From an uncultured virus (IMG/VR IMGVR_UViG_3300031760_000011) (taxonomy: Duplodnaviria; Heunggongvirae; Uroviricota; Caudoviricetes), in the IMG/VR virus record IMGVR_UViG_3300031760_000011: 57,941 nt of DNA; one strand, 5' to 3'. A model generated the notes under the pieces. It saw nothing but the letters and a program-made list of their open reading frames with translations. It was not told where the DNA came from and did not search any database. Each line of letters begins with the position of its first letter. Position 1 is the first letter of the stretch. The position numbers were made by a program, and so were the translations under genes. Below, one piece after another: positions 9,794 to 50,565 of the stretch.

Positions 9794-9805
9794 TAAACCA
9801 TTGTT
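9794..9805 (-). promoter_or_regulatory. AR9-late-type promoter motif AACA-N6-TA
   Basis: Minus strand AACA ATGGTT TA upstream of 9758; one of 14 copies. Confidence 0.7.
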
Positions 9806-9837
9806 TTTATACTGAAATCTTAGGGTAAAAAATAAAG

Positions 9838-9857
9838 AGCCCGCCATATGGCGGGCT
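9838..9857. terminator. Palindromic terminator
   Basis: Perfect 20-bp palindrome AGCCCGCCATATGGCGGGCT, with a T-tract on the minus side. Confidence 0.8.
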
Positions 9858-9862
9858 TCTTG

Positions 9863-10384
9863 TTATGAGCAGTTACCTGTGATGATGAATGCCAACGTAT
9901 CGTTGAACTCAGGACCGCAGATTGAAGTACCGGTTACTTTAACGGGCAAGATTCCTTCGAAGATGTTACCATACATCTCCTTCGGAATTGTAAACTTGAG
10001 TCCTGGGTCAAGGTAGATACCAGCATTCTTTTCTTTGCGATTAAATAATGCTGTCATTTTTTCAACGTAAGTCTTTACGATGTTTGGATTCTTGGAATAA
10101 TCCAATTCCTTACATCCGAAGATGTGGTCGTTACCCTCACGCAGAGGAACTGCATAGTTAAACAGCAGAGGAATGTACCAACCTCTGATTTCGGTTGTGC
10201 GTACGATAGTTCCTCCGTAACGCACACGATACGTTATCGGTGAACTTTCATCTGGAACAAGAAGTACATGAGCGCAGATGTCGCGGGTTTTAATAACCCT
10301 ATTCTGTCCATTCATAAGCTCACGTTTCTGCTCACGAGTATAACCTTCAATGATATACTGAAGGTCAATGACTTGATTTGACAT
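9863..10384 (-). CDS. Hypothetical protein
   Basis: 173 aa ORF with GGAG RBS, in an operon with the RNAP beta'-N gene. Confidence 0.75.
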   Translation of the reverse strand: MSNQVIDLQYIIEGYTREQKRELMNGQNRVIKTRDICAHVLLVPDESSPITYRVRYGGTIVRTTEIRGWYIPLLFNYAVPLREGNDHIFGCKELDYSKNPNIVKTYVEKMTALFNRKEKNAGIYLDPGLKFTIPKEMYGNIFEGILPVKVTGTSICGPEFNDTLAFIITGNCS

Positions 10385-10392
10385 AATTTCTC

Positions 10393-10704
10393 CTATTCAT
10401 TATAACCATCAAAGTTATCGGTGTCATCATAAGATTCAGATACTGTATCGTCATTGAGGTTATTATCATCAAATGATTCTTCGATGTCATCAAAGATTTC
10501 ATCTGTAGCTAAACCATTAGTGATATAATCTCTTATTTTACCAGTGAGATTGATATATTCGCCGTCCGACAAACGAGACTTTGCAAACTCAATCTGCTCG
10601 ATAATCGTTTTCTCAAAGAACTCGGAGATTATTTTATCAACCTCAGGATTCTTTTCATCAATAACCTGTTCTACAGGTTCATCTGGTTGTTTGGGAACTA
10701 CCAT
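10393..10704 (-). CDS. Small acidic hypothetical protein
   Basis: 103 aa, D/E-rich, AAGGAG RBS overlapping the upstream stop. Confidence 0.75.
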   Translation of the reverse strand: MVVPKQPDEPVEQVIDEKNPEVDKIISEFFEKTIIEQIEFAKSRLSDGEYINLTGKIRDYITNGLATDEIFDDIEESFDDNNLNDDTVSESYDDTDNFDGYNE

Positions 10705-10713
10705 TACAACTCC

Positions 10714-12216
10714 TTACGCTCCAATCTGCATTTGAGCAAATGCAGCGTCACGTTTTGCAATCATATCTGAGTCTACGATTGAGAACTCAATTTGGTCATC
10801 AAAATCGTCATCATCATCGAAGTCATCGTTTGCGAAGCTATACAACGCAACCAATTCATCTTTGATAAGGTTCATATCACGGTTAAACTTTCCTGTTGCT
10901 GTGCTGATGATGAATCTGTCAGGAGAGAAGAATTTTTCCATCTTGTCGGCGATACGCGTTTCCATAATAGGAACGTTATTGAGCGTATCGCCGTCGAAGT
11001 CAGCATTAGCAATTTTACAGGTACCAAGAACCATGCGCATAGCAAGGTCATTAATATCATCGTTGATTTTTCTGAGACGAAGGACAGTAGTTGAGCCTAC
11101 AGCAATTGTGGGGTTGCGGTTATTGTACAACCGCATTCCGTTCTTTGTATTGCGGATAAGCAGATTGATAATCTGCATGATGCTCGGGTCTTGTCTTTCG
11201 ACAAGTTCATACCAACGATTCTGAAGCTCGTTGATAGTTACGTTATACAGCTTCTTGTAGATATTCATGATTTGGAACTTGTAGAAGCTGACAAACGTAC
11301 GGTAAGGAATCTCGATTGCATTGAGCTTTGTGGTGTATACGTTTGATACAAGAACGTGACGTGCTGAGAAGTTGATTCGTGAGCCCATAATGAATGTACG
11401 AATGAGCTGTTTCTTACCGTTAAGTTTCTTATTGATGATTTCGGCGTCAAGTTCATTAAGCTTCTTTTGCAGTTCATACAGCACCATGAGGTTTGTATTG
11501 ATGAGTTCATCATCGTTATTCATGTTGATGTATGAGACATTACTGAGAATCTCTGAATAGAACTTGTTAATCGGGTCGTAGTTGAAGGTTGTCGCGCCAA
11601 TCAATACAACCGGACGCATGAGCAATGATATGACGGGAATATGAGAGATGAAAATCTTATCGCGATTTGCCATCAAGAACTCAATTTCCTTCTTACGTTT
11701 CTTGTCACCAAGATTAGCAATGATTTCGTCAAAGCGATACATGAACTCGACGATACCAATGTTCTCATAAGCATTCTTCGGTTTGACTGTCATGTCAATC
11801 ATACCATGCTTATCGAGCTTCTTGTCGTACTTGATGATAGAATCAAGTACCTTTGATTTGAGCACCTGTTCAATGATGTGATACATATTTGGATGAATAA
11901 GGACGTAAGGTTTCTTCAGTTCCATCCATCCATACTTTTCAAGTTCTCCATTCTGGTACTCGACGACAGTGCCACAATGAGGACAAATTGTACCTGCCTT
12001 GAAGCGTCCAATAGTTCTTCCACAGCGACAGGTATACTGCTTCTGAATTTCTGATACGTCTGAGATGTCTCCGCCGAACAGAGAAGAATAAATGCCACGC
12101 TGGTCACGAATCATATCCTTACGATTTATCGTAACTGGTTTATCAATAGGAAATCCGTTTCCAGATTTCATATCGTTGGCGCATTCTTCATCAAGATTCA
12201 AAATCTCGATCTGCAT
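10714..12216 (-). CDS. rpoC: Phage multisubunit RNA polymerase beta' N-terminal subunit (catalytic), probably non-virion RNAP (AR9 gp270-like)
   Basis: N-terminal Zn finger (CRCG...CPHCG), GSRINFSARHV, NRNPT and the catalytic NADFDGD (10987-11007). Start MQIEIL at 12216 with GGAGG RBS; ~500 aa. Confidence 0.93.
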   Translation of the reverse strand: MQIEILNLDEECANDMKSGNGFPIDKPVTINRKDMIRDQRGIYSSLFGGDISDVSEIQKQYTCRCGRTIGRFKAGTICPHCGTVVEYQNGELEKYGWMELKKPYVLIHPNMYHIIEQVLKSKVLDSIIKYDKKLDKHGMIDMTVKPKNAYENIGIVEFMYRFDEIIANLGDKKRKKEIEFLMANRDKIFISHIPVISLLMRPVVLIGATTFNYDPINKFYSEILSNVSYINMNNDDELINTNLMVLYELQKKLNELDAEIINKKLNGKKQLIRTFIMGSRINFSARHVLVSNVYTTKLNAIEIPYRTFVSFYKFQIMNIYKKLYNVTINELQNRWYELVERQDPSIMQIINLLIRNTKNGMRLYNNRNPTIAVGSTTVLRLRKINDDINDLAMRMVLGTCKIANADFDGDTLNNVPIMETRIADKMEKFFSPDRFIISTATGKFNRDMNLIKDELVALYSFANDDFDDDDDFDDQIEFSIVDSDMIAKRDAAFAQMQIGA

Positions 12217-12268
12217 TAGGTAACCTCCTGAAAATGTGTACAAATAAAGAATGTATACACAAATTGAA

Positions 12269-12280
12269 TATTTCGTTGTT
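12269..12280 (-). promoter_or_regulatory. AACA-N6-TA promoter motif
   Basis: AACA ACGAAA TA upstream of the beta'-N gene; a TATACAT box lies just downstream (12251-12257). Confidence 0.65.
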
Positions 12281-12322
12281 AAGTCGAAAATCAACTTCGA
12301 GGGAAGACCCTCGAAGAAGATA

Positions 12323-13138: not shown

Positions 13139-13165
13139 TTTATGTTTGCCTCCAAGGTATGACAG

Positions 13166-13177
13166 TATGCAAATGTT
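13166..13177 (-). promoter_or_regulatory. AACA-N6-TA promoter motif
   Basis: AACA TTTGCA TA upstream of 13138. Confidence 0.7.
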
Positions 13178-13212
13178 CGAAGGCGATACACTACGTTTTC
13201 AAGACAAAAAAT

Positions 13213-13238: not shown

Positions 13239-13271
13239 TTTGCTTTCGTTTAGGAATGCTCGCTCTACTGA

Positions 13272-15398
13272 TTACTCAGCAACGAACATCCCACCACGTC
13301 CGCCTCCCTGAGGAAACGCACCACCCATCATAGGCTGCTGCTGGAACTGGTTCTGCTGACCAGGATACATCTGGTACTGAGGATTCATGCCCATACCCAT
13401 CGGCGAACCCATCATCCCCATCTGGGGCTGGAATCCGTACTGGTACTGCTGTCCCTGTGCCATACCCTGGCGTCCACGGCCACGCTGCTGCTGCATCATA
13501 GGCTGTCCCCACGGGTTATACTGAGGCTGCTGCTGGAATCCTCCCATCATGTTCGGATATCCGCGTGCGCCCCACTGCTGCTGCATACCGCCGCCAAACA
13601 TACCCATCTGAGGACCGTTGAAGAACTGCTGGTTCCCACCGATTCCCCAAGGCTGCTGGAACTGGTTCTGCTGCTGTGCTCCCTGATTTCCATTCTGCTG
13701 CTGGTTTTGCATCATGGCATGATATTCTTCGACTGTCATGTTGTTGCGGCTTGCCCAATCATGCTCACACAAATCATTGTAGATATAGTTGCAAGCATTG
13801 CCGTTGAAGCAGAGACGGATTGTACCAGGGTTGATGACTCTCACAAGTCCCGCTTTGCGCTTGAACTCCTCGAACTTTGTCTTGTTCTCGTAGCTATCCA
13901 AGTTCTTCGGGAACTTCGGGTCTTTTGCCAATTCAGGCGCCATCTTCGCAAAAGATGCGAGTGTAATCGCTGCAGGCAAGACACGTGCGTGTTTGTCGAC
14001 GTTCGGAATAAGATACGCCATAAGGCTTGTGTAACCGAAGCCGCCGCCCCACATAGTCTGCACCGGCATAAAGTATGTCTGTGCTTCGTTCTTGAGGTTC
14101 GGGCTAAGTTTACTGATATCGAGGTCGAGCTCAACCTGATATCCAGCCTGATAGAGATTGAATGCGACGTAGCGCAACCAGTCATCTACGATGACGTTTG
14201 CGTTTTCCGCCAACTCGCGGATGTGCGCAATCTGAATCTTTCCGCCAGGAACGTTCGGATTTGAGATTTCTTCAACAGAGTATTTTGCACCTGCGATGAT
14301 GCGAGTGCGCGGACCCTGCTGCTGCATCTGATTCTGCTGGAAGCCGCCGTTCATGCCAAATGCTGAACCGAATGTCTGATTGAATGCACCGCCGCTCTGG
14401 AAACCGTTCCATCCACCCCACTGGCGTGTCATGTCGGTCAAAGAGATAACGATGAACTCATTGGCTCCCGTCACAGTTGCAGACGGAGAGTTCTCCTGGA
14501 AGAACTTTTCAACCTGTCCGCGAAGGTTCTTGAGGTAGCCTGAGTTCTGACCATTGCTCGCGATAACGCGGCTGTCGAGAACCTGCATACCATTGCGTGC
14601 GCTGAGGTACTGGTCGGCGGTTACGTGAGTAATCACCTCATTGCCCGGGAACGCACACTTGTAGATGAAGTATGCCACTGCGTTCAAGCGGTATGCAATA
14701 TCATCATCGTACACGACGATGTAAGATTCGTCGGTCAAGTTACCATTCTGGTCACGGTTGTTGAACTGAGATGCAAACTGGGTAACGAATGCTCCACCCA
14801 TTGAGAAGCCCTGCGGATTCTGGTCAGCAAACTGCGTCCACTGATGAATCGGAGAAGTCGGGTCTCCCAAGCCCTGAGCCCACATGATATGAGCTTTTCC
14901 GAAATCGACGAGGTAAGCTTTGAGGTCAGCCTTGTAATCCACGGTGAGCGGAGTTTTAGTTGACTCTGCCATTGCGGTAATCATCTTACCGAACGGTGTT
15001 GCTTCAAACGACTGAAGCTGCGTTCCTGCGTTGTCGAGCAAGTCGAAGTCGAGAACCAGTTTGTCGTTTACGCGGTACTGGTTTCCGTTTCCATTCGGAC
15101 GACCGGCGTTGCCGTTGCCGTTTGCTCTGTGTACTGTCTGGGCACCGCTCTGCCCTGTTGCACGCTGCTGTGCATACTGCTGGTAATTCTGAGCGTTTGC
15201 CTGCTGTGTATGCTGCTGTGCTGTCTGCCCAACGTTAATCGTCTGAATGTGAGGCTTAACCTGGACTGTTTCCATTCTACGCTGTCCAATGTTTGACTGT
15301 CCAGCGGTTCCTGCTGTAGGCTGAGTAGCCTGGGTCTGTGCAGCTGTCTGCTGCTGAGCCTGAGTTGCTCCATTATTTTTCGGAGGCATAACTGGCAT
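13272..15398 (-). CDS. Hypothetical protein with Q/T/A-rich N-terminus and prion-like Q/G/M/aromatic C-terminus
   Basis: Start MPVMPPK at 15398, since the GAGGAG RBS sits inside the track's first codons; ~708 aa. Low-complexity termini flank a ~450-aa core. Confidence 0.85.
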   Translation of the reverse strand: MPVMPPKNNGATQAQQQTAAQTQATQPTAGTAGQSNIGQRRMETVQVKPHIQTINVGQTAQQHTQQANAQNYQQYAQQRATGQSGAQTVHRANGNGNAGRPNGNGNQYRVNDKLVLDFDLLDNAGTQLQSFEATPFGKMITAMAESTKTPLTVDYKADLKAYLVDFGKAHIMWAQGLGDPTSPIHQWTQFADQNPQGFSMGGAFVTQFASQFNNRDQNGNLTDESYIVVYDDDIAYRLNAVAYFIYKCAFPGNEVITHVTADQYLSARNGMQVLDSRVIASNGQNSGYLKNLRGQVEKFFQENSPSATVTGANEFIVISLTDMTRQWGGWNGFQSGGAFNQTFGSAFGMNGGFQQNQMQQQGPRTRIIAGAKYSVEEISNPNVPGGKIQIAHIRELAENANVIVDDWLRYVAFNLYQAGYQVELDLDISKLSPNLKNEAQTYFMPVQTMWGGGFGYTSLMAYLIPNVDKHARVLPAAITLASFAKMAPELAKDPKFPKNLDSYENKTKFEEFKRKAGLVRVINPGTIRLCFNGNACNYIYNDLCEHDWASRNNMTVEEYHAMMQNQQQNGNQGAQQQNQFQQPWGIGGNQQFFNGPQMGMFGGGMQQQWGARGYPNMMGGFQQQPQYNPWGQPMMQQQRGRGRQGMAQGQQYQYGFQPQMGMMGSPMGMGMNPQYQMYPGQQNQFQQQPMMGGAFPQGGGRGGMFVAE

Positions 15399-15444
15399 AA
15401 TTTTCTCCTCTTGCATTTATGCTGTAACTTAATGCAGATGATTT

Positions 15445-15558
15445 CCCATTTGGGTTCCTCTAACGAAGTGAGGACGTCGGCACTCCTGCCGGTCAGACGT
15501 TTACAGCCGTCTGTTTTATAGAGTATTGAAGTCGAGCACCCTGGAGACGCCGGGTGCT
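15445..15558 (-). promoter_or_regulatory. Structured 5' leader (run of hairpins)
   Basis: Consecutive stems AGCACCC/GGGTGCT, CAGACG/CGTCTG, CGGCA/TGCCG, TCCTC/GAGGA and CCCA/TGGG lie between a TATACTAG box (15568-15575) and the RBS. Confidence 0.55.
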
Positions 15559-15587
15559 ATCACAAGGCTAGTATAAATTATTCCCGA

Positions 15588-17453
15588 TTACATCAGGTCT
15601 CCGTCGAGAGCACCGAAGTCTTCGTGAATAAATCCAACATCTGGTTCTATGGTTGTCTCCTCTGTCATCATGTCTACTTGAGATTGATTTTGGACGGTCT
15701 CATCAGTAGCAGTATAGCCATCAGCAGGAATGTCATCTGCTGACTCGGCGGGAGCAGACACTTGCGATTCTTCGACGCGCTCGATATCTGCAACGACAGG
15801 TATTTCATTGTTAGGGTTACTTTCAGGCTCTACCGTAGGAGTTTCTACGACAGACTTTTCAGCAACCAGCTGAGGCTGTACAGGTTCCGTTACGACAGAT
15901 TCGGGAATCGGCTGCTGAGCAACCTCTTCTTCTTTCGGAAGCAACGGGTCGTTTGCAATAGCATCGACGACAGCCTCAATCTGTTCAGGTGTTTTCTGAC
16001 CATCGTCTTCCATTGTAGGAAGCGGAATCTGCTCCAACTGAACGTCACCAGGAAGCGATTCTTCAGGAGAAATCGTTCCTTTGTAATCGTCATCCGAAGC
16101 CATGTACTTGTCAATCAAGTCATCATCTTTCGGATTCAGAACCGTATCTTCTTTTTCATCAGAATCAACAGGTTCACCGTCTCGCGTTTCGACAACCTCA
16201 GGTTCAATATTGAGGTCATCAATGATTTCATGCATTGATTCAGTCATTTCTTCATAGCTCTCCTCTTTAGGCTGCTCTTCTTTGAGCATTTCCTGAGCCT
16301 CGGGACTATCTGAAACTTGAGGATTCAGATAGTCAGGTTCAGGAGGTGTGACTTGTGCCGGCTCATAATCTGTAGGATAACCATCAGCTGCCGGTTGTGG
16401 AAGCGGTTCTTCAACCGGAGGATTTTCCGGTTCATAGACATCTTGTTCGTCAGGTGTCTGTTTCTGAGTGTCGTCTGAAGGAACTTCGACGTTTGCGTCA
16501 ACGTCCCAATCGACGTTATCGTGTTCGGTCATAGATGATACCTCGTTATTTTCAATTTCATTAGTATCATCATGTATATCCTCGCCTTCTATTGGCTGGT
16601 CGTAACTTGCTCCAGCAAGTCCAGCGACAGTATTTTTGTGATTTACCTTCTGAACTTGTCGCTCACCAGAATCAGATGAAAGTTTAGTTCCATGACAAAC
16701 GGGGCAAGGTGTTCTGTCTGTATTGAAAAGGTCGCGCGGTTCGGCAGTAAACTCATTTTCACAGAACTTACACTTTACCACGATAGGAGAAGTATGGTCT
16801 TTGTACCGCCAGATTGCATCTTCGGTAAAAATGTACGGAAACTCAACTTTCTTTGACTCAAAGAAATTATGAAGAGCTTCGACCAAACGAACTCCACCCC
16901 AGTTCACGCCCTCGTCAAGCATAATCTTATTACACTTCGGGCAATACGGAAACTTGATTGTCGTTCCAGGAAGATATTTGTCTTCAACGACAAATGCATC
17001 TTTGAGCATTGTGAGTGTCGCCGAAAACTCAGAGTTGCACGATTTGTGAATAACGCGAATTGATTTCCCAACGTTGATAGCCTTGAACTTATACGGCTGA
17101 TAACCAAGATTTTCTTCAATCGCAAGCATTGCGCTGAAGTCTGTGCGGAGAGCGAGCTGATTGTCTTTATCCGGTTCTTCCATAGTGATAGGAAGCTGCT
17201 CGTTGTACTCAGGATTGAAATCCGCCTGACATTTCGGGCAGTAGATTTTACGAGTTTTCCAAAGATTTTCAAGGTCGTTGAAAGTTCCTTCAAGAGGAAA
17301 CTCGCAATTCTTACATGTCCAAGTGAGTTTTGTCTGTTCGCGCTGAATTGCTGGAAGGTGCTCCGAGATTTTGTATTTGTACGGCACAAACTTCCAGAAG
17401 CGTCTGATTTCGGTTTCTACCTCACGCGGTGTAAGGTTAGGAGACTCCATCAT
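15588..17453 (-). CDS. Multi-zinc-ribbon protein with long acidic disordered tail
   Basis: CKNC, CPKC, HKSC, CPKC, CKFC and CPVC pairs in the first ~255 aa, then ~350 aa rich in E/D/P/Q. Confidence 0.8.
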   Translation of the reverse strand: MMESPNLTPREVETEIRRFWKFVPYKYKISEHLPAIQREQTKLTWTCKNCEFPLEGTFNDLENLWKTRKIYCPKCQADFNPEYNEQLPITMEEPDKDNQLALRTDFSAMLAIEENLGYQPYKFKAINVGKSIRVIHKSCNSEFSATLTMLKDAFVVEDKYLPGTTIKFPYCPKCNKIMLDEGVNWGGVRLVEALHNFFESKKVEFPYIFTEDAIWRYKDHTSPIVVKCKFCENEFTAEPRDLFNTDRTPCPVCHGTKLSSDSGERQVQKVNHKNTVAGLAGASYDQPIEGEDIHDDTNEIENNEVSSMTEHDNVDWDVDANVEVPSDDTQKQTPDEQDVYEPENPPVEEPLPQPAADGYPTDYEPAQVTPPEPDYLNPQVSDSPEAQEMLKEEQPKEESYEEMTESMHEIIDDLNIEPEVVETRDGEPVDSDEKEDTVLNPKDDDLIDKYMASDDDYKGTISPEESLPGDVQLEQIPLPTMEDDGQKTPEQIEAVVDAIANDPLLPKEEEVAQQPIPESVVTEPVQPQLVAEKSVVETPTVEPESNPNNEIPVVADIERVEESQVSAPAESADDIPADGYTATDETVQNQSQVDMMTEETTIEPDVGFIHEDFGALDGDLM

Positions 17454-17483: not shown

Positions 17484-17495
17484 TAGTTTTCTGTT
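17484..17495 (-). promoter_or_regulatory. AACA-N6-TA promoter motif
   Basis: AACA GAAAAC TA upstream of 17453. Confidence 0.65.
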
Positions 17496-21173: not shown

Positions 21174-21185
21174 TATTCGAGTGTT
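21174..21185 (-). promoter_or_regulatory. AACA-N6-TA promoter motif
   Basis: AACA CTCGAA TA upstream of 21155. Confidence 0.7.
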
Positions 21186-24245: not shown

Positions 24246-24926
24246 TTACAGCTCGGTTGAGCCGTTGCACTTAAGATTTCCAAATATTTCTATCTGGTTA
24301 TAAATGCGGTTATTTTTTGAAAGTTTGAATAAGTCTGCTGGAGTAATCAAGCGACCGCGAGTCATCCGAAACTCAATACCGAATGTCCAGACACGCTTCC
24401 AGAACGGAGGCCAATGTGTGAAGATGTCTTTCTGATACTTGATATCATAGACGGAGTTACAAATTGACTTGACGTAATCAACTGAGTCTGTATCCTTGAG
24501 CTGGTTTGGTGAGCCAATTAATACCAAATTGGGGCGCGGCATACTTTCAAACTGCCAAAAAAGATCGACAGCAGCAATCATTGCGATAGGCCCGCCGAAT
24601 GACCATCCCACAATACTGAAGTTACATCCGGAATGTGTTTTCAAAGCACCTTCAATAGTGCAGATAACGTCATCACAGATAGGTTTCCAGATATCGTAGA
24701 ATAGTTTGCTGACCTTTATTTTATTCGTCCCATTTGATATAGTGACGCTTGATTTTAGCAACATGAGAAGTTCGCGGAACCTGATATCGCGATTTCCCAT
24801 AAACATGAGCCTCAGGGTATTACAAGATTTATCATACTCGTAGCTCCATTTGACAATTTTGTCCGCTTCATCATCGAACCAATACTTTTTGTTTGTCATA
24901 TGGCTATAAAGTTGATTGTACTTCAT
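24246..24926 (-). CDS. Class-3 lipase-like alpha/beta hydrolase
   Basis: Nucleophile elbow IVGWSFGGPIA (GxSxGG), IGSP and DIFTHWPP. Start MKYNQ at 24926 with GGAGG RBS. Confidence 0.75.
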   Translation of the reverse strand: MKYNQLYSHMTNKKYWFDDEADKIVKWSYEYDKSCNTLRLMFMGNRDIRFRELLMLLKSSVTISNGTNKIKVSKLFYDIWKPICDDVICTIEGALKTHSGCNFSIVGWSFGGPIAMIAAVDLFWQFESMPRPNLVLIGSPNQLKDTDSVDYVKSICNSVYDIKYQKDIFTHWPPFWKRVWTFGIEFRMTRGRLITPADLFKLSKNNRIYNQIEIFGNLKCNGSTEL

Positions 24927-26042: not shown

Positions 26043-27563
26043 TTAGTCCTCCGTATAGTTTGACGGTTTCTTGAAGAATCCGTTGTATACTTGTGCGAAT
26101 GGTGTAAAGCATCCTGTTGCACCAGGGTCACCTGCACCAGATGTATTGAGTGAAATATTTCCAATCATCGTTGGACTCTGCGCACGCTGACTTAGTGACA
26201 GTGAGTTCGACCTTGCTGTCTTGCGTGTAGTTGTACTCGGTGCATTGAGAGTCCATTTGAGCGCAATATTGAAAAGGTTCATATCGTTGACAGAGTCAGC
26301 ATACTTTGTGTTATTGCTATTGATGATACTCTTGATGAGAATATCAGAGCTCTGTTCGATATGCTTCTTATTCTTGGCGTCCATACTGAACTTGTACGGA
26401 AGTGTAAGAACTTCCTCGAACTTCTGCGGTGTCTTGAAGCGGTCGCGTGAATGTGTAACACGATGCATCTTTGTCATGATACGGCGCACAATCGGAGCAA
26501 TCTGGTACTCAGAAAGCCTGATGCGTTTATTGTAGATTGATGTATTGTCACGATACATGAGTTTCGTGAAGTTGATAAACATCCAGCGGAGAACTTCGTA
26601 GATATCTTTCTTATCGACCTCTTCAAAGTTCTTGACATTTTCGCGGGTGATAGAGTCATACTGTCTCTTGAATGATTCAAGGAACAGGTCGACTTTCTTA
26701 TTCTTCGACGCCTTTTGTTTGGCGAAGTTTGTACCGAGCTTCTCGTACTTCCACCAGTCAGCATTGCAGAGTTCATTGATAGTAATATTCTTTCCGCACG
26801 CATCGAGAATACATCCAACCAATGTGCGACAGTCAACGCTATTTTCAAGCATAACTGTCGGAACCTTGAGGAAGATATTTTCTGATATATAGAAGAACTT
26901 GAAGTTTGGGTCTGTTTTATTGACTTTATCCGAAGACACAATCGTAAAGACTGTACCGTTACCCTCAAAGAACTTGAGAGTTCTGAAGAACCCCATACAT
27001 CCGAAGAAGAATGTAAGGAAGTTCACGTGTTTTTTCTGAATATCGGTGTACATTACGAATGAGTTGTACTGCTTGCTATTTACATCTACGATTGTCGTAG
27101 GAACACGAGTAAGTACAACAGGCAACCCAAGACACTTGAGCGTGAGCGAGTTGTTGCGGTGGAATGTGGTGCTATCGAGCAGCTGAACCACAGGATAATA
27201 ACGAGTATCATTTATGTAATAATACTCACCATTGATGAGATTCGGAATTTCGATGACCATATTCTTGTAGAACGTTTCTTTTTCTCCAAGCTTATTGGTG
27301 CCTGAAACTTTGAACTTGTAAGCAACGCAATAAATATTGCTGTCGTGAAGCTGAACGAACTCTGATGGGAACTCCTTTCTTTGGTCGATAACCTCATATC
27401 CGAGGTATTCGATGTTCGGGCGCATTGTGTAGTCTATAATCTTACACAATTCTTCGAGCGTCTTAATCATGCTGTCGTCCGTTCTAAACTTCGAGATGAT
27501 ATTAGAGTCGAATACATTGTGCTTTGATGATAAAGCTACAAAATTATCCATTGGTGATACCAC
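26043..27563 (-). CDS. rpoB: Phage multisubunit RNA polymerase beta N-terminal subunit (AR9 gp105/phiKZ gp123-like, non-virion RNAP)
   Basis: IEIPNLINGEYYYINDTRYYPVVQL, KRIRLSEY and the C-terminal IGNISLNTSGAGDPGATGCFTPF match the beta-N pattern. GTG start with GGAGG RBS. Confidence 0.85.
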   Translation of the reverse strand: MVSPMDNFVALSSKHNVFDSNIISKFRTDDSMIKTLEELCKIIDYTMRPNIEYLGYEVIDQRKEFPSEFVQLHDSNIYCVAYKFKVSGTNKLGEKETFYKNMVIEIPNLINGEYYYINDTRYYPVVQLLDSTTFHRNNSLTLKCLGLPVVLTRVPTTIVDVNSKQYNSFVMYTDIQKKHVNFLTFFFGCMGFFRTLKFFEGNGTVFTIVSSDKVNKTDPNFKFFYISENIFLKVPTVMLENSVDCRTLVGCILDACGKNITINELCNADWWKYEKLGTNFAKQKASKNKKVDLFLESFKRQYDSITRENVKNFEEVDKKDIYEVLRWMFINFTKLMYRDNTSIYNKRIRLSEYQIAPIVRRIMTKMHRVTHSRDRFKTPQKFEEVLTLPYKFSMDAKNKKHIEQSSDILIKSIINSNNTKYADSVNDMNLFNIALKWTLNAPSTTTRKTARSNSLSLSQRAQSPTMIGNISLNTSGAGDPGATGCFTPFAQVYNGFFKKPSNYTED

Positions 27564-27587: not shown

Positions 27588-27599
27588 TATAATGTTGTT
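27588..27599 (-). promoter_or_regulatory. AACA-N6-TA promoter motif
   Basis: AACA ACATTA TA upstream of the beta-N gene. Confidence 0.65.
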
Positions 27600-27787: not shown

Positions 27788-28342
27788 ATGAATAGCAAAT
27801 TATTTGACGTTACACCGATGATTATTATTCATCGGGAGCATTGTCGTGATATTGACACTATCGACGAGATATTCGATGAGATTTCCAGCACATACCCAAA
27901 GTTCAGAGATTGGTTTAGAGATACTTGCGTAGATAGAGACTGCATTGTAGCAAGAACGCAATCTAAGCAAATCGTGGGTATCCTCATTTATGCAAAAAAG
28001 ATCCTGCGGACGCTGCCGCAGGATTATTGTAAACTTGGTTATCAAGACCATATGTACAAGATTTGCACATTTATGGTTCACAAAGATTATCGTAATGGTC
28101 ATATGAGTTATGCTTTATATCAAGCATTTAGAAACGAAGTTAATCGCGATGACTGGATTGAATATGTCTCAATATATGACGAGAAGCTTCCGGCAACTGT
28201 AAAGTTTTTCGAATCTCTTGGATTTGAACGATTTACTTCAAAGAAAAGAACTGGAGAAACTTACTTTATAAATGAAGTCTCTCCAAAGTTCTATCATCGA
28301 ATAACTGTTGAAATTTCAGTTACACTGCCACAGGAAGCTTAA
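27788..28342 (+). CDS. GNAT-family acetyltransferase
   Basis: IVGILI, KICTFMVHKDYRNGHMS (motif A) and FFESLGF (motif B). Confidence 0.75.
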   Translation: MNSKLFDVTPMIIIHREHCRDIDTIDEIFDEISSTYPKFRDWFRDTCVDRDCIVARTQSKQIVGILIYAKKILRTLPQDYCKLGYQDHMYKICTFMVHKDYRNGHMSYALYQAFRNEVNRDDWIEYVSIYDEKLPATVKFFESLGFERFTSKKRTGETYFINEVSPKFYHRITVEISVTLPQEA

Positions 28343-29237
28343 AATCGTTTTCTTTATCATACTCGTATTTGTACGGTACAGTTTCGTGTTCTACTGGGTT
28401 TGCAGGGTAACCTGCAAACTCTGTTTCGCCTAGCGAGTTACCGAGCTTGATATCATCGAGAGTGAAGTCGTAGAAGTTCTTTACACTCTTTCTAAGCAGC
28501 AGTTGCGGTGCGCGTCTTACTTTCGGTATCGTATTGATAATTTTCTTTGCAAACTCTTCGTGACGGTCATAAATATGACAATCTGCAATAACGTGCTTGA
28601 ACGTCTTAGGAATGAATCCAGTAACGTGAGCAATCATGCACTGAAGAGCTGCGTACTGAACTGTATTCCAACCATTGGCAACCATCATATCCTGACTACG
28701 CTGAAGGAGCATCATATTCAGATATGGTCCTTCGGTAATCCAGATTGTGCTGTAAGCGCATGGAGCAAGACCCATTTCTTTGATGTCGTGTGGATTCCAA
28801 ACAGTCGTCATGATGCGGCGAGAACCTTTATTGTGAGTCAAATCCCAGATGAGTTTATCTGTCTGGTCAAGAACTCCACCGTTATTATCACCCCAGTCAT
28901 ATTTTACACCCATCTGATATCCATAGGCTTTTCCGATGCTTCCAGACTCATTAGCCCAAGCATCCCAAATGTGTGATTTTAAGTCATGAACGTTATTGGA
29001 CTTCTTCTGGAAAATCCAGAGGATTTCTTCGACCGCACTTTTAATTGGAACTTTGCGGACTGTGAGAATCGGGAACTCATAAGTTAAATCATACTCATCC
29101 ATCTGACCAAAGATTTTCTTGGTATGCGCTGGAGTTCCATCTTCCCACTTAGGACGAACTTCGTCGTTTACATCTGAGTACCCATCGTTCATAATCTTTG
29201 CCAGATTAGCCATGAAATAATTGTCTGCTATAGTCAT
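28320..29237 (-). CDS. thyA: Thymidylate synthase
   Basis: IWDAWA, GKAYG, SRRIM, catalytic PC, QRSQD, dUMP-specifying Asn (GWN) and HIYDRH. VRPKWEDGTPAHT resembles Firmicutes/clostridial ThyA. Confidence 0.95.
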   Translation of the reverse strand: MTIADNYFMANLAKIMNDGYSDVNDEVRPKWEDGTPAHTKKIFGQMDEYDLTYEFPILTVRKVPIKSAVEEILWIFQKKSNNVHDLKSHIWDAWANESGSIGKAYGYQMGVKYDWGDNNGGVLDQTDKLIWDLTHNKGSRRIMTTVWNPHDIKEMGLAPCAYSTIWITEGPYLNMMLLQRSQDMMVANGWNTVQYAALQCMIAHVTGFIPKTFKHVIADCHIYDRHEEFAKKIINTIPKVRRAPQLLLRKSVKNFYDFTLDDIKLGNSLGETEFAGYPANPVEHETVPYKYEYDKENDFKLPVAV

Positions 29238-30478
29238 ATAAATAACTCCTTAGATATGTCTCGTGCAGATACGACACATAAATATTTCTCAGCACGCGTT
29301 AAGCAAGTGTACATCCATTGACAGTATGGTTTACCGCCAGTAGATGTATAATCGTCAATAACGAGTACGCGTTTCCATTGTGAACCTTGACTTTTATGCC
29401 CAGAAATAGCATAACCATAATCCATGCCATTAACAGTAAGTGACAATCCATTTACTTGAACTTTTGGAGTTCCAAATGGGTCACCACTTGGAATCTGTTC
29501 TTCTTCTGGGAGATAATTATTCTCGAAATCATTAAGGAATACTGGAATCCGAATCGCTTTTGAAGTTCCGTCTGCTCTACACCAGAGTTGACCAACGTTA
29601 TTCTCAGCTACGCCTATTAACTCACTTTCGGAAACCAAGGTAGTTCCATTTACGAGATTATAAGCTCCGCAATTCTTGTCCATGAAGTTATCTCTAAAAT
29701 TATTGATTGTACAAATGAGCTTATCGCCATTCTGAGGCATATGGTCTTTAATACCAAGTATGCGTTCTCTAAATATACGATTGAGCATTCGTCGAGTTCT
29801 GTTTTTGTAGCACAGTATCTGGTCGTACATCATCATTTCGTTGATATCAAACGCATTGAACGACCGAACTACTTTTACGTCATCTTTATAAGCGTTCAAA
29901 TATGGAGAAATACCATTACGAACATCAGTAGCAATTTCAAGAATTGAAGAATCTTCCGACTGACGGTATACTTTCTCAAATACAACGTCAGGATTCGCCA
30001 ACCAGTGATTCGGTAATGCTTTTACTGGCGGAAGTTGACCGGGGTCACCTAGAGCGATGATTGGAATCTGGAACTTCTCCAAATCACAAGCCATCTCTTC
30101 AGGAACCATACCAATCTCATCTACACAGAGTAAAGCAACGTTTTCTCCGATAATTTTTTTGAGTGAATAAGTGAACTTATCTGTATCTTTAATACGTCTT
30201 GTGTTATAAATAAGATGATGAATAGTAAATGCTTGATGCCCTTTACTTCGAAGTACATTTGCAGCTTTGCCAGTGTAACAGCAATAAGCAACATTATGCT
30301 TCGGAATATTAAGTTTAGCCATGATAAATGATACGACTGAACTTTTACCACATCCAGCATAACCTTCAATTACAAATACGGGTTTACCTCCACCATATGT
30401 CGCTCTGAGATACCATTCACAACAGTCTTCGACGCATTTTTGCTGAACTGGGTCTAATTTTATTACGCCGTTTTGCAT
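29234..30478 (-). CDS. RecD/Dda-like SF1B DNA helicase
   Basis: Walker A GYAGCGKS, VDEIGMV, GDPGQLPPV, YRQ, HKSQGSQW and YTCLTRA. Confidence 0.92.
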   Translation of the reverse strand: MQNGVIKLDPVQQKCVEDCCEWYLRATYGGGKPVFVIEGYAGCGKSSVVSFIMAKLNIPKHNVAYCCYTGKAANVLRSKGHQAFTIHHLIYNTRRIKDTDKFTYSLKKIIGENVALLCVDEIGMVPEEMACDLEKFQIPIIALGDPGQLPPVKALPNHWLANPDVVFEKVYRQSEDSSILEIATDVRNGISPYLNAYKDDVKVVRSFNAFDINEMMMYDQILCYKNRTRRMLNRIFRERILGIKDHMPQNGDKLICTINNFRDNFMDKNCGAYNLVNGTTLVSESELIGVAENNVGQLWCRADGTSKAIRIPVFLNDFENNYLPEEEQIPSGDPFGTPKVQVNGLSLTVNGMDYGYAISGHKSQGSQWKRVLVIDDYTSTGGKPYCQWMYTCLTRAEKYLCVVSARDISKELFI

Positions 30479-30552: not shown

Positions 30553-31218
30553 TCACAGCGTTCTTCCGAATACTCTTTGGACGTAATCGTTAATTGCTTT
30601 CATAATCTGATTATGGATGTCTTCAGGAGTCTGGTCGGCGTTGATAATGACAACTTCAGGAGCAGATCCATTGTCATCTCTGAATCCGTCGAGAACTTCA
30701 GAATCACGAATCATCTGATGAAAGTTATCATACACGACCGTAAGCTTTTGCATATTCTCGTAGATGTCAATTTGGTCGCGCTTCTGAATACGTTTAATAG
30801 CAGCATCTGGTTTGATGTCGAGGAAAATAAAAAGACCAGCGTCTGGCATTTTCTTATTCATATAGAACGAAATCTTCTGGTCTTCTGAATAAGCCAATCC
30901 AGAATACTTGTAACGCCCAGTAATCATGAGCTTTTCTTTGATAGAATTATGAGAATTTACATGGTCTATAATCTGAGCGATGTGTTCGCTACGGTCTGCG
31001 AGCATCAAGTATTCAAGTGTGGATTTCGACTTAAACTCAATTTCGCCGTGCAAAACTTTACGAATGAAATCTCCAGTAGGGGTTCCATATACAGGTTCAG
31101 TCGTCGTATTGAATCCTTCTTTCTTAAGAAGATCAAGCTGGGTGTCTTTCCCACAACCATCAATACCTTCAATACAGACGATGTACATACCAACGTTCGT
31201 GACATTTACAGTACGCAT
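30553..31218 (-). CDS. tmk: Thymidylate kinase
   Basis: EGIDGCGK, TEP, ADRSEH, xRY..SGLAY and AIKRI. Start MRTVNV at 31218 with GGAGG RBS. Confidence 0.9.
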   Translation of the reverse strand: MRTVNVTNVGMYIVCIEGIDGCGKDTQLDLLKKEGFNTTTEPVYGTPTGDFIRKVLHGEIEFKSKSTLEYLMLADRSEHIAQIIDHVNSHNSIKEKLMITGRYKYSGLAYSEDQKISFYMNKKMPDAGLFIFLDIKPDAAIKRIQKRDQIDIYENMQKLTVVYDNFHQMIRDSEVLDGFRDDNGSAPEVVIINADQTPEDIHNQIMKAINDYVQRVFGRTL

Positions 31219-31238: not shown

Positions 31239-31274
31239 TACTACGATGTTTTCAGGGATTTGAACAAGCGAATA
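31239..31274. promoter_or_regulatory. Back-to-back divergent AACA-N6-TA promoter motifs
   Basis: Minus strand AACA TCGTAG TA (31239-31250) and plus strand AACA AGCGAA TA (31263-31274). Confidence 0.75.
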
Positions 31275-31310: not shown

Positions 31311-32945
31311 ATGAATGAGCTGTCACTTATCGGCAGCATCGCAAGAATCGCTGCTGGTGGTCTTAGCGATGATGGAGATGACATCATCTCCGCAATTCAG
31401 GGAATAAAAGACGTTAATAGTCCTAACTCCCTGTCAAAGAAAGCACGAAATGGAATCTATGAGTTTCCATTCCTCGTCTCTGGTAATATTGAGAATATCG
31501 AAAATATCGCCGTAGTAATCAAGGGTATGGAATGCGAGTATGCAAATATGCTCATGATTGCTATGGGAATCAATCCAACTGTTAAGCAATCTACAAACAT
31601 CGAGATTCAGAAGACTCTCTCGAAGTATCACACGAACGACAAAGACTGGTCTTTTGAAGCTGGAAACCTTGCTCATTGTGAAGTTGAAGGTAACCACATT
31701 GATGTGGTCTACGAATCGAGCATGTTTGATAAAGCGTATTGGAACTCAATGGGTAAAAAGGATACTTCGCCGGATGCAAAAAATCATCAGGCGAATGCTG
31801 ATTACCGTAGATTGTATCAGTACGCTAAGAAAAGCGGATTTACAAACTCAGACTTCGACGATATGCTCAAAAACTGCAATACATATGACGAATATTCGGC
31901 ATACGTCAATAAAGTTCTCGATGAACGCGACAAATCGTCATCTTCTTCTGGAAATGGAAGCAACGGTAATAGTGACGGAAACTCTAGTGGTAACGATAAA
32001 AATATCGGCGGCTATGGAAATATCATAGCAGATGAACTTCGCAAGAATCTCAAGAGTAAAGATACTCAGAGAATCAAAGAACTTGAGAAAAATAATGCGA
32101 ATCTTCAAAAGCAGAATGAAAAAGCTGCTTCTCAACTCAAGAAGTTTACCGATGAAGAACAAAGGCACGAACGTCACATGACAGGTGAAGATATGAACTA
32201 CGATGGTTCTATCAATAACCCGAAGGTTACAATGAATATGACGAAGTCTGAAAGCATTGTCAACCAGAAGTATCTTCAACTTTTCAACGCTACGGTTGTA
32301 TCAGTAAATATTCGCATGGGTACCGACAAGAATAGTGAGTATCGCTTGACAGTTGGTATCAAGGGTATTCCACATTTCGTTCCTTATGAAGAGCTAGTGT
32401 ACGTTCTTTCTTCATTCATGAATACACGTGTCGACACGCTTATCACACGTTTCATTCGTTGGCGTACTGGTGAGGTAAAAGGTCTTCACAATCTTTTCCT
32501 TCGCTACGACGAAATAAAACGCGACGCCGATTTTGACCGCCGTGTCGGAACTTCAAACTCATGGTTGAAAGTTCTCCGTTCACGCGGTAACAACCGTCGT
32601 TTTAATAAAATTGTGAATCTTTTCTCGAAAGCTCTTGGACATGGTTCACGTATGCGTGATATCTTGCCGAACTGTACGTTTGTGCTGTCGCTTTCAGACG
32701 TTGACCTTATTGAGAATGAGTGTGGTGTCAATATCTTCCAAAATCCTGAGAGTGCGTCAAAGCTTCTTGATGATTCAATGGGTCTTGGTTTGGTTATTAC
32801 CGATGACGTTCATAACGTTTATCACATCATGTACTCTGGCGAGTCTCGTTTTGCGACTTACCCACTCGGTGAGCTGCAGAAGTTTGCAAAAAATAAGGAC
32901 CATTCTGACATCACTATGGACCTTGCAAAGATTATGAAGAGATAA
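31311..32945 (+). CDS. Hypothetical protein, probable virion/head protein
   Basis: 544 aa, GGAGG RBS, S/G/N-rich linker and coiled coil; first gene of a three-gene operon. Function is inference. Confidence 0.6.
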   Translation: MNELSLIGSIARIAAGGLSDDGDDIISAIQGIKDVNSPNSLSKKARNGIYEFPFLVSGNIENIENIAVVIKGMECEYANMLMIAMGINPTVKQSTNIEIQKTLSKYHTNDKDWSFEAGNLAHCEVEGNHIDVVYESSMFDKAYWNSMGKKDTSPDAKNHQANADYRRLYQYAKKSGFTNSDFDDMLKNCNTYDEYSAYVNKVLDERDKSSSSSGNGSNGNSDGNSSGNDKNIGGYGNIIADELRKNLKSKDTQRIKELEKNNANLQKQNEKAASQLKKFTDEEQRHERHMTGEDMNYDGSINNPKVTMNMTKSESIVNQKYLQLFNATVVSVNIRMGTDKNSEYRLTVGIKGIPHFVPYEELVYVLSSFMNTRVDTLITRFIRWRTGEVKGLHNLFLRYDEIKRDADFDRRVGTSNSWLKVLRSRGNNRRFNKIVNLFSKALGHGSRMRDILPNCTFVLSLSDVDLIENECGVNIFQNPESASKLLDDSMGLGLVITDDVHNVYHIMYSGESRFATYPLGELQKFAKNKDHSDITMDLAKIMKR

Positions 32946-35939: not shown

Positions 35940-35951
35940 AACAAATTACTA
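35940..35951 (+). promoter_or_regulatory. AACA-N6-TA promoter motif
   Basis: AACA AATTAC TA upstream of 35967. Confidence 0.7.
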
Positions 35952-42001: not shown

Positions 42002-42013
42002 TAATCGAGTGTT
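42002..42013 (-). promoter_or_regulatory. AACA-N6-TA promoter motif
   Basis: AACA CTCGAT TA upstream of nrdG. Confidence 0.7.
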
Positions 42014-42432: not shown

Positions 42433-43632
42433 ATGAAACACCAAAAATCTAAAAGCATAAGTATCGTATTTCTAGCGGACCTTCATTTCGGAAGTCGTAG
42501 AGATAATGCAAATATTTATGAATCGTTACAAAAGTGCGTTTATCCATATATCTCAGACACAGCTCCTGACCTAATTGTAATAGGTGGGGATGCTACAGAT
42601 GACAGAATCTCATTTGACCAGCTTGCGGCTCGTTACTATCTCAGATTTCTTGAAGATATCACTTCGTTCAAGAGGTATGATAAACCAAATGGTTGTATTC
42701 CAGTAAGATTCATTGCAGGTACAGAAAGTCATGAAAAAGGTCAACTTCAGGCACTTCAGTTCCTTACGAATAATTCAGGCATTGACGTAAAAACATTCGA
42801 GACTGTTGGTGAGGAGACAATATGTGGGTGTAGGATGCTTTATATACCCGAGGAATCTGTGGACGACAAAAAGCAGTACTATTCGTCCACAGTTTTCAAT
42901 GATGGAAAGGTGTATGATTTTGTATTCGGTCACGGCATGTTCAGCTTTATTGGTAATAACGGATGGGGTGTAAAAGAACGTTCGTTAAAAGGTTCACCAG
43001 TATGGAATGCGGCTGAGTTTGAAGACAAAGTTCGTGCTGGTGTATTCTTCGGACATATTCACATTCATCAGAACTATAAAGACTTGATTTACTATCCCGG
43101 CTCATTGACTCGTTTTTGTCATGGCGAGGAAGAACCAAAAGGATTCTATGCAATTCAGTATAATCCCGAGAATGGATTAAAGAACGTCGACTTTATTGAA
43201 AATACTTGGGCGTACAAATACGAGACAATCGTTCTCAATGGCGAAGACGTTGAGAAAGATAATCCGAAAGATACTATCGACTCGATTCTCATGCACAAGA
43301 ATGCTTCTGCAGCATATAGTCTTAGAGTTCGTATATCTAACGCAAATAAAATGTCAAGTAATACACAAGTCGTTCAGCAATACTTCTTGCAGAAAGGACG
43401 TGGGCTTGGTGTTACTATAGAACTTCAGTCAGCAGTTCCAAACGTTGGGGTTTCTGATATTGTCAAAGATGGAGTTGTCGAACACGAAGTTCCTGAGTTT
43501 GCGAAAGGTATCACAAATCCAGAAGACTGGCAGTATAATACCGTACAGTACGCAAAAGCGCGTTACGGTAAAGATATTTCACGTGAGCAAATCCAAAATA
43601 TGCTCATGAAATGTAATTCATTCGGTAGATAA
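42433..43632 (+). CDS. SbcD/Mre11-like metallophosphoesterase nuclease
   Basis: ADLHFG, GGD, GTESHE, HGM, GHIH, YPGS and EEPKGF motifs. Confidence 0.9.
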   Translation: MKHQKSKSISIVFLADLHFGSRRDNANIYESLQKCVYPYISDTAPDLIVIGGDATDDRISFDQLAARYYLRFLEDITSFKRYDKPNGCIPVRFIAGTESHEKGQLQALQFLTNNSGIDVKTFETVGEETICGCRMLYIPEESVDDKKQYYSSTVFNDGKVYDFVFGHGMFSFIGNNGWGVKERSLKGSPVWNAAEFEDKVRAGVFFGHIHIHQNYKDLIYYPGSLTRFCHGEEEPKGFYAIQYNPENGLKNVDFIENTWAYKYETIVLNGEDVEKDNPKDTIDSILMHKNASAAYSLRVRISNANKMSSNTQVVQQYFLQKGRGLGVTIELQSAVPNVGVSDIVKDGVVEHEVPEFAKGITNPEDWQYNTVQYAKARYGKDISREQIQNMLMKCNSFGR

Positions 43633-43643
43633 ACATAATTTTG
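43632..43643 (+). promoter_or_regulatory. AACA-N6-TG promoter motif
   Basis: AACA TAATTT TG upstream of the DnaB-like gene. Confidence 0.65.
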
Positions 43644-45557: not shown

Positions 45558-46013
45558 TTAAATCTTACGATAGTTCTGTTCAATGAACTTCATAAAAATA
45601 TCCCAACCTGGAAAGGGAGGGAATGAGTGGTCGTCGATATACAAATCGGCAGCAACCTTGTTTGATGTCTTGAAGCAACCTGGAATATTTTCGTTTACGG
45701 CATCAAACTCAATGCCGTTACGTTTACACCAGTTGATAGCATCATTGAGATACTGACCCGTACGACAAGTCCAGAGGATAATTTTAACTCCTGCGTTTTT
45801 CAATCGTTTGATAGCAAACACTGCTCCTGGATTTGCAGAACCAACGTAAGGAAATCTGTCCTTTACGATAGTTCCGTCAAAGTCAACTGCAATTACAATT
45901 CGATTCAACGGTTTCTTAAATGACTTTTTGTACGAGTCTGTTGAAACGTATTTTGGTTTAATGCCGCCACTCATTTGGTCAAGCATTTCTTTGAAGAAAT
46001 CTTCAGATGCCAT
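45558..46013 (-). CDS. HAD-superfamily phosphatase
   Basis: IAVDFDGTIV (motif I), LWTCR (II), K...YIDD (III/IV). Confidence 0.85.
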   Translation of the reverse strand: MASEDFFKEMLDQMSGGIKPKYVSTDSYKKSFKKPLNRIVIAVDFDGTIVKDRFPYVGSANPGAVFAIKRLKNAGVKIILWTCRTGQYLNDAINWCKRNGIEFDAVNENIPGCFKTSNKVAADLYIDDHSFPPFPGWDIFMKFIEQNYRKI

Positions 46014-46758: not shown

Positions 46759-46803
46759 TATTGAAGTGTTTTTGAACTAAATTATACCGAAAACATCGCT
46801 ATA
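46759..46803. promoter_or_regulatory. Divergent AACA-N6-TA promoter motifs
   Basis: Minus strand AACA CTTCAA TA (46759-46770) and plus strand AACA TCGCTA TA (46792-46803). Confidence 0.75.
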
Positions 46804-49209: not shown

Positions 49210-49232
49210 TATCGTTGTTGGAGGACTAAAAT

Positions 49233-50036
49233 ATGGCAAAGAGCCAGTTTTACGTCAATCGCGATGTACGGTACTTGATTGACCGGCGAATCTATGAATA
49301 CGACATACGACGAGCCGGTCTTCAGGCTCTCGTAAATATTGGAGCTATCGACGCTAAGACATATGAAATGTGGAAAGCTAGAGATAAGCACTGGTCCTCG
49401 ATATTTATAGGTACGCATATGGCAAAGTACATGCGTGCACAGAATGACGATATTACAAAAGGTGTCGATGAGTTCTTGAGAGCAAACGCGATACAAAACT
49501 CAAGAATAATCTCAAGAAAACGCGACGCAGTGTTTATTTTCCCAGAGATGATTCCGAAAGTTACAAAAGTGAATGGATATCAATTCGTATGTAAGCATCG
49601 TTATACATCTTACTATCACATTGAAAATCTTGAACTGTATTATAACAGCTTTAACGATACTCTTGATGTGAAAGGTATTGATGCAAGGTTTACAGAGAAC
49701 CACCCGTTGATAGATGAATTAAAAAAGATAATTCGTTTGTATGAGTTGCGTATGCAAGGAACGGTAAGTTATGAAGAAGTGTATACTGAAGTTCATGAAT
49801 TGAGAAATCAGTATTGTGAGTTGAAGTTGCCTTTGGAATGGTATCGTGAAATTGCATATGATAATCCATATGCGTTCAAAGACAAGCGTACTGGAGCTAT
49901 TTTACATCTTCAGGTTCTTCCGAGTCCTGAAGAGAGGTTAAATTATGAACTGATGACTTCATATAACTTTATGAAAATCATCGTTCCATTTATCCGTATA
50001 CTACCTGAATTGAGGTACATTAATCATGGCGGTTGA
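49233..50036 (+). CDS. Small divergent family-B DNA polymerase palm-like protein
   Basis: YEYDIRRA (motif A-like), SRKRDAVF (motif C-like) and LDVKGI in only 267 aa; no exonuclease domain. Confidence 0.55.
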   Translation: MAKSQFYVNRDVRYLIDRRIYEYDIRRAGLQALVNIGAIDAKTYEMWKARDKHWSSIFIGTHMAKYMRAQNDDITKGVDEFLRANAIQNSRIISRKRDAVFIFPEMIPKVTKVNGYQFVCKHRYTSYYHIENLELYYNSFNDTLDVKGIDARFTENHPLIDELKKIIRLYELRMQGTVSYEEVYTEVHELRNQYCELKLPLEWYREIAYDNPYAFKDKRTGAILHLQVLPSPEERLNYELMTSYNFMKIIVPFIRILPELRYINHGG

Positions 50037-50508
50037 GAACGAAATGAAGAACGATAGGTATTATCGGTATATGCAAGGGGACGATATTGTAAAAGCAAAA
50101 TATGCTTTAGTCCTTGATGATAATGGATATATGGCACAGGTGTTGAGTAAAATCAAAATCAAGAAAGAAGACTTCTTGTACCTGTGTCGTATCGCTATAG
50201 AGTCGCAAAAACTCAATTCGCTTCAAATCTTACTGGAGATATATCACACGTTTTGGACACAAGATGTCTTCGACGAGTTAGTGAGTTACATCAAAAAGTA
50301 TAGGCGTTATGAAATGGCTTCGTTTATTTCGGAGTTTATTGATAAAGCCAATGCTTACCACACTTCAGTAAAAGAGTGGAATGAACATGTGCGTGAAAAC
50401 AAGCGTAAGAAAGCCGAGCAAACTCAAGCTACGCTTGAACCACCACAACCTGAAAATAAGCCGAATGTATTTCAGCGAATTTTCAGATTTCTTTTCAAAA
50501 AGAAATAA
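50026..50508 (+). CDS. Hypothetical helical protein
   Basis: 160 aa, overlaps the upstream stop; C-terminal amphipathic/basic helix NVFQRIFRFLFKKK. Confidence 0.7.
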   Translation: MAVENEMKNDRYYRYMQGDDIVKAKYALVLDDNGYMAQVLSKIKIKKEDFLYLCRIAIESQKLNSLQILLEIYHTFWTQDVFDELVSYIKKYRRYEMASFISEFIDKANAYHTSVKEWNEHVRENKRKKAEQTQATLEPPQPENKPNVFQRIFRFLFKKK

Positions 50509-50509
50509 T

Positions 50510-50537
50510 ATCACTGGGAGCCTAGGCTCCCAGTGAT
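50510..50537. terminator. Palindromic terminator
   Basis: Perfect 28-bp palindrome ATCACTGGGAGCCTAGGCTCCCAGTGAT followed by a T-run. Confidence 0.85.
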
Positions 50538-50553
50538 TTTTGATATTTAAGTC

Positions 50554-50565
50554 AACAGTAAATTG
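50554..50565 (+). promoter_or_regulatory. AACA-N6-TG promoter motif
   Basis: AACA GTAAAT TG upstream of the beta'-C gene. Confidence 0.65.

Follow-up and report, generated by a model that had tools for sequence, protein, structure and literature searches.

The closest described counterparts of the locus studied here are the non-virion RNA polymerases (nvRNAPs) of phages AR9 and PBS1 (PMC5312081, PMC5449584, PMC9209446). In the accessible text of these papers, the mapped AR9 promoter consensus is AACA-(6N)-TA/G with its last base as the start (PMC5312081), and template bases -11 and -10 must both be U. The -10 U lies between I207 of the sigma-like subunit gp226 and R363 of beta-N, bonds K375 and is 3.9 A from V206; the engineered change V206G admits T at -10, while the -11 requirement comes from the stacking and conformation of the DNA itself and not from V206 (PMC9209446). 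Among close gp226 homologues from uracil-DNA phages, Val206 is reported to be absolutely conserved, and a proposed role of uracil is to keep the AR9-type enzyme off host DNA. In the available parts of the literature, uracil phages are marked by having neither thymidylate synthase or ThyX nor dUTPase (PMC7824862) and by carrying dCTP deaminase and dT hydrolases (PMC12697855). The absence of Ugi is weak evidence, since phiR1-37 has uracil DNA yet lacks it (PMC8150378). A 2026 review, in its accessible portion, still ties the AR9-type system to uracil (PMC13282480), and a literature search, with most subscription papers outside its reach, returned no paper on AR9-type promoters in a thymine-DNA phage.

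The present system is like that of AR9/PBS1 in consensus, spacing and apparently split beta/beta' subunits, in a gp105 orthologue that keeps R363, in a subunit of the gp226 fold and in a second AT-rich word of early type. It differs in having Glu for V206 and Lys for Y210, in encoding ThyA and Tmk with no Ugi or deaminase found, in avoiding T-rich restriction sites, in GC content (41.6%) and in a beta'-C of ~25% identity. As in the engineered AR9 gp226 V206G (PMC9209446), a change at position 206 goes with -10 thymine, but here the change is natural and acidic, and thymine at -11 must be tolerated too. The phiKZ nvRNAP, with gp68, has a homologous sigma-like subunit and works on thymine DNA, although its late promoters are TATG and not AACA-N6-TA. 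The analysis itself tested the state of residue 206 on a second record that is very probably from the same phage, and restriction-site avoidance by T content.

The stretch of DNA analysed (57,941 nt, hereafter the window) covers positions 62001-119941 of the virus record G000 (119,941 bp), which is a fragment of an AR9-related jumbo phage and ~48% complete by estimate. Its genes include split RNAP subunits, NrdD/NrdG, tubulin, gyrase and virion proteins; NrdD suggests an anaerobic host. A tandem repeat array occupies G000 1-300, at the contig start, and likely accounts for an assembly break there. In the beta'-C comparison, closer uncultured relatives were found at 43-59% identity, several of them on contigs of 197-268 kb; the relative G001 is 268 kb long and 91% complete. 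Scans of viral contigs with single proteins gave no close relatives. A 9.9-kb stretch of the window is mostly covered in bovine gut metagenome runs, and a strain occurs in mouse gut runs; RNA contigs from run X17 span the region and were set aside, since they carry no strand, start or level. We gave no weight to presence in ordinary metagenomes as a sign of thymine, because AR9-like proteins turn up there as well.

AACA-N6-TA sites and a second, candidate promoter word

The initial annotation placed 14 AACA-N6-T(A/G) sites upstream of genes in the window, all correctly oriented and including two divergent pairs, and equated the motif with the AR9 consensus. All 14 match exactly, lie on the same strand as the gene they precede and have their first A 25-64 nt from its start codon; both pairs (31239-/31263+ and 46759-/46792+) are real, and the motif is identical to the mapped consensus (PMC5312081, accessible text). 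The sites are as follows.

9794-9805, minus: AACA-N6-TA promoter-like site upstream of a virion structural protein (8805-9758); the G001 orthologue keeps the site
12269-12280, minus: motif 64 nt upstream of beta'-N; weaker, missing at the G001 orthologue
13166-13177, minus: motif upstream of an unknown 271-aa protein, directly after a hairpin and T-tract
17484-17495, minus: motif upstream of a 621-aa HNH-like protein; G001 keeps the site
21174-21185, minus: motif upstream of a 1109-aa protein; G001 keeps the site
27588-27599, minus: motif upstream of beta-N; overlaps the early-type word ACATTAT, missing at the G001 orthologue
31239-31250, minus: motif upstream of tmk; divergent pair with 31263
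31263-31274, plus: motif upstream of a virion structural protein (31311-32945); G001 keeps the site
35940-35951, plus: motif upstream of a baseplate assembly protein (start 35967); G001 keeps the site
42002-42013, minus: motif upstream of nrdG-nrdD
43632-43643, plus: motif with TG end upstream of a DnaB-like helicase; the weakest, overlaps ACATAAT and may be an early-type word
46759-46770, minus: motif upstream of a conserved unknown protein; L007 and L011 keep the site, G001 does not; divergent with 46792
46792-46803, plus: motif upstream of a 794-aa beta-helix protein; G001, L007, L010 and L011 keep the site
50554-50565, plus: motif upstream of beta'-C; kept in G001, L009, L010 and L011

Of the relatives named, L007, L010 and L011 are metagenome contigs. 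The weakest sites are 43632, 12269 and 27588, and about two of the 14 are expected by chance. Four further intergenic copies (G000 1783-, 3316-, 37310- and 40237-) lie 150-530 nt before the next called gene.

Over the whole window the motif is rarer than chance (38 matches versus 86.8 expected), and it stands upstream of 14 of the 45 window genes against a mean of 2.3 and a maximum of 7 in 500 shuffles, an enrichment that the promoter reading of the initial annotation had implied. The same holds for G000 (26 of 91 genes; shuffle mean 4.8, maximum 12), for G000 together with G002, a record described below (42 of 144 genes versus 7.4), and for G001 (59 of 236 versus 12.7). Spacings of 2-5 and 7-11 nt gave only 2-8 genes and the reverse strand 7, and in G000 and G002 single-base variants preceded 1-10 genes each as against 39 for AACA-N6-TA; of the 42 sites, 39 end in TA and three in TG, which makes TA the prevailing form here. 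Only two tetramers are more depleted in G000 than AACA (O/E 0.61). Within genes, AACA-N6-TA is depleted (14 of 568 AACA words, against 4.7% when the spacing differs; p=0.005), as it likewise is in G001, AR9, phiR1-37 and LPJP1. Moreover, the motif is kept at the G001 orthologue for 14 of 18 motif-bearing genes and is found there for 8 of 38 others (p=8.5e-5). Replication and nvRNAP genes lie behind it too, not virion genes alone.

A second word, TACAT-N-AT, is found upstream of 19 of 144 genes in G000 and G002 (shuffle 1.9), among them gyrase B, DNA polymerase, HU and tubulin. In its AT-rich form TATACATWAT it resembles the AR9 early element AAATATATATTAT and is a candidate promoter of the virion RNAP. 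In addition, the near-palindrome CTGA(A/G)ATTTCAG recurs, mostly between genes and near promoters of both classes (window 9812, 17536 and 38483; G000 5750, 14887, 37113, 40801, 43875 and 59093; G002 26241 and 63399). The exact pattern has no match in G001, and it is possibly an operator for a phage regulator.

Polymerase subunits and the sigma-like protein

The polymerase genes identified are given below; the last of them lies on the second record, G002.

10714-12216, minus: RNAP beta'-N-like subunit, probably non-virion; start at 12216 supported by a Shine-Dalgarno (SD) sequence
26043-27563, minus: non-virion RNAP beta-N, orthologue of AR9 gp105 (31% identity)
50590-52590, plus: RNAP beta'-C; best cultured matches phiR1-37, AR9/PBS1 and Staphylococcus S6-like phages (~25%)
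G002 14673-16247: gp226 orthologue (E 3e-99; 99% to P0215)

The beta'-C homologues in MarsHill and Madawaska are annotated as non-virion. In beta-N, the pocket residue R363 is conserved; for K375, an alignment of eight sequences shows Lys and pairwise BLAST shows Glu. A non-virion beta-C was not found in G000 or among the matches of G002. G001 has one, and the same record also carries beta-N, a beta'-N-like subunit, beta'-C and the gp226 orthologue.

The initial annotation had looked to a gp226-like subunit elsewhere in the genome. Two gp226 profiles run over the contig ORFs and a six-frame search found no homologue on G000, where the candidates g33 (adjoining the primase) and g52 were rejected for having no PDB match. 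An orthologue lies instead on G002, with Glu251 at the position of V206 and Lys at those of both Y210 and S245.

G002 is a 67,743-bp record (GC 0.415) with the same avoided words as G000, and it is very probably another piece of the same phage. In tetranucleotide usage the two records correlate at 0.95; the two halves of G000 correlate at 0.96, and correlations with G001 are 0.45-0.54. The 26 G001 orthologues of G002 do not overlap the 55 of G000. The main contigs of both records show no differences in run X1, at depths of ~10-11 (one short piece 7.4) versus 10.2, and the depths also track each other in runs X2 and X10. We infer the link rather than observe it, since X1 may be the source of both records, and no contig and no sequence overlap joins them. 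Together they make 188 kb, with at least the non-virion beta-C missing, and genes for uracil or base modification could sit in the missing part. Each fragment carries one of two class-3 lipase-like paralogues, 30% identical (window 24246-24926; G002 2710-3342). In runs X2, X3 and X10, ~750 bp of a strain-variable segment of G002 (L044:11837-12697) are either replaced or not covered.

A profile search of the gp226 family gave 510 representatives. Position 206 is Val in 96 of 167 aligned rows and in six of six cultured uracil-type phages, and the G001 orthologue has Glu. Among the 17 homologues of the G001 protein, which form a single clade (support 1.0), there are 14 Glu, three Asp and no Val. 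The AlphaFold model of the G001 orthologue matches AR9 gp226 (7s01_A, E 2e-15) and phiKZ gp68 (8que_B, E 4e-7), but its pLDDT is below 50 at residues 249-261, and the 2.1bis helix is modelled too poorly for the pocket to be assessed. The Glu of the clade may simply pair with a co-varying Lys one helical turn off. V206E alone is insufficient to explain tolerance of thymine, because Glu keeps the C-beta and the -11 U requirement of AR9 lies in the DNA fold. Six natural homologues (P0103, P0105, P0116, P0121, P0124 and P0135) have Gly at position 206, as in the engineered AR9 protein that accepts thymine, and they share a mostly non-Val subtree with the G001 clade (43 tips, support 0.89). The tree was set aside as a guide to which base, thymine or uracil, was read ancestrally, since nearly all its tips come without known DNA chemistry.

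Nucleotide genes, restriction sites and the chemistry of the DNA

Three genes that follow one another on the minus strand include the two for thymidylate supply.

28320-29237, minus: thymidylate synthase ThyA; passes TIGR03284, catalytic motifs intact
29234-30478, minus: Dda-like helicase; overlaps the thyA start
30553-31218, minus: dTMP kinase (Tmk); passes TIGR00041

An intact-looking ThyA, with its catalytic Cys and its Asn, and a Tmk had both been read from the sequence, and both readings hold. ThyA aligns end to end with the B. subtilis-type enzyme (closest solved structures 1b02 and 1bko), has an intact C-terminus and keeps RPKW, EEILW, SRR, APC160 (Cys160), QRSQD, N191 (Asn191) and DCHIY, which we take to be the ThyA catalytic motifs. 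Tmk has Gly-Arg-Tyr in place of the Asp-Arg usual in its family. ThyA is absent from AR9, phiR1-37, S6, LPJP1 and BpSp, and dU-DNA jumbo phages are described as having neither thymidylate synthase nor dUTPase (PMC7824862), whereas here ThyA is in the window and a dUTPase is in the relative G001 (full length, 160 aa, just below the TIGR00576 cut-off). That dUTPase was the only positive outcome when dUTPase, Ugi and dCTP/dCMP deaminase were sought: G000 and G002 have no dUTPase, and neither Ugi nor deaminase was found in G000, G002 or G001, with the AR9 positive control recovered. A PF06941 search (dTMP phosphatase/dTTP pyrophosphatase) was discarded, since it missed its AR9 positive control. 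A BT0820-like HAD phosphatase at window 45558-46013, also present in L007, would be relevant if it is a nucleotidase.

Restriction sites offer a second approach. In the accessible text of PMC12697855, dU DNA fully resists enzymes with two thymidines per site and partly resists those with one, and GC-only sites are cut; a uracil phage should thus gain nothing by losing its T-rich sites. We took palindromes with at least two T per strand and called them avoided at O/E <0.3. In G000 and G002 together, 5 of 33 are avoided (5 of 31 in G000 alone), with observed/expected counts of 0/37 for TTTAAA, 1/54 for ATCGAT, 2/27 for GTTAAC, 9/42 for AGTACT and 11/38 for TACGTA. None of 35-36 is avoided in each of AR9, phiR1-37, S6, LPJP1 and BpSp (100-120 kb of each genome used), controls that are related, lower in GC and from other hosts, and whose purged words hold no or one T. 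Uracil DNA is reported for AR9, phiR1-37 and S6 (PMC8150378 and PMC8460666, accessible parts), is suggested by PCR for LPJP1 and is assumed for BpSp. Only 1 of 35 such palindromes is avoided in G001. Among 3851 hexamers, seven have O/E <0.3 and all seven are palindromes, which fits restriction pressure. The avoidance of T-rich words could be a legacy of a thymine ancestor. GATC is likewise rare (56 versus 923 expected; O/E 0.06-0.07 across G000 and G002), as are GCATGC, CTCGAG and GGCC; this fingerprint of host restriction could help to assign the host, and it suggests DNA without the shielding of a nucleus-like shell.

These data bear on whether uracil replaces thymine throughout or in part, as in AR9, with thyA a passenger and the uracil genes in the unassembled part. 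We consider this very unlikely, even though the promoter consensus is the same and the nvRNAP is of AR9 type, R363 and K375 of beta-N are kept (the latter in the eight-sequence alignment), and the incomplete genome has no dUTPase in G000 or G002. A passenger thyA accords poorly with a gene that shows no indels in four runs and in which all four listed SNPs that were checked, among many more, are synonymous. Moreover, the 91% complete G001 has a dUTPase and no deaminase, TTTAAA, ATCGAT and GTTAAC are purged, and Val206 is lost.

Highly improbable, in our view, is a modified thymine at some positions, whereby the acidic side chain that faces C5 at position -10 would read a positively charged substituent. 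An acidic residue is found at position 206 in 17 of 17 clade members, residue 206 of AR9 sits 3.9 A from C5, and part of the genome is missing. The Glu may, however, just pair with the co-varying Lys, the ThyA is closest to the canonical B. subtilis-type enzyme, the T-rich restriction sites are purged, and Pfam scans of 93 of 99 G000 ORFs, 48 of 51 G002 proteins and 215 of 236 G001 proteins returned no base-modification family. We give barely any credence to the further idea that the invariant Glu/Asp is a new reader, by which the clade would gate its promoters on a charged modified thymine, as AR9 does on uracil, through enzymes encoded in the unassembled part. Finally, that the motif serves a regulator or belongs to a host-type promoter is extremely unlikely, because, although the starts here are predicted ones and replication as well as virion genes lie behind the motif, it has the exact AR9 consensus and spacing and an orientation bias, it is depleted within genes as in AR9 and phiR1-37, and a gp226 orthologue exists in the clade.

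A probable thymine-reading AR9-type polymerase

AACA-N6-TA is thus very likely the promoter of the phage's own five-subunit nvRNAP, and the DNA on which the enzyme reads it is likely ordinary thymine DNA; we hold this reading as a whole to be probable. The initial annotation had left open thymine DNA or a mixed use of T, U or modified T. The first has gained from gene content, site avoidance and the loss of Val206 in the sigma-like subunit, which together favour thymine DNA, and the second has found no positive support. Against thymine stand G001, in which none of ThyA, ThyX and Tmk was found, the lack of a dUTPase in G000 and G002, and the missing part of the genome.

In the course of infection, the virion RNAP would fire TATACATWAT-type promoters early, and the nvRNAP, with a sigma-like subunit of gp226 type, would follow, initiating at the last A of the motif and serving virion, nucleotide-metabolism and nvRNAP subunit genes. 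Phage ThyA and Tmk would supply dTTP. Of the AR9 -10 pocket, the core half appears kept (beta-N R363 and K375) and the sigma half rebuilt (V206 to Glu, Y210 to Lys, S245 to Lys), and the rebuilt half is predicted to admit the methyl group of thymine.

If the same four-base word is indeed read on thymine DNA, the promoter code and the uracil gate would be separable, and this phage would provide a ready-made enzyme with which to ask how the -11 constraint relaxes and how so short a promoter avoids host DNA. A metagenomic phage should also not be called 'uracil-DNA' from an AACA-N6-TA motif, and the T content of avoided restriction sites provides a sequence-only test of DNA chemistry.
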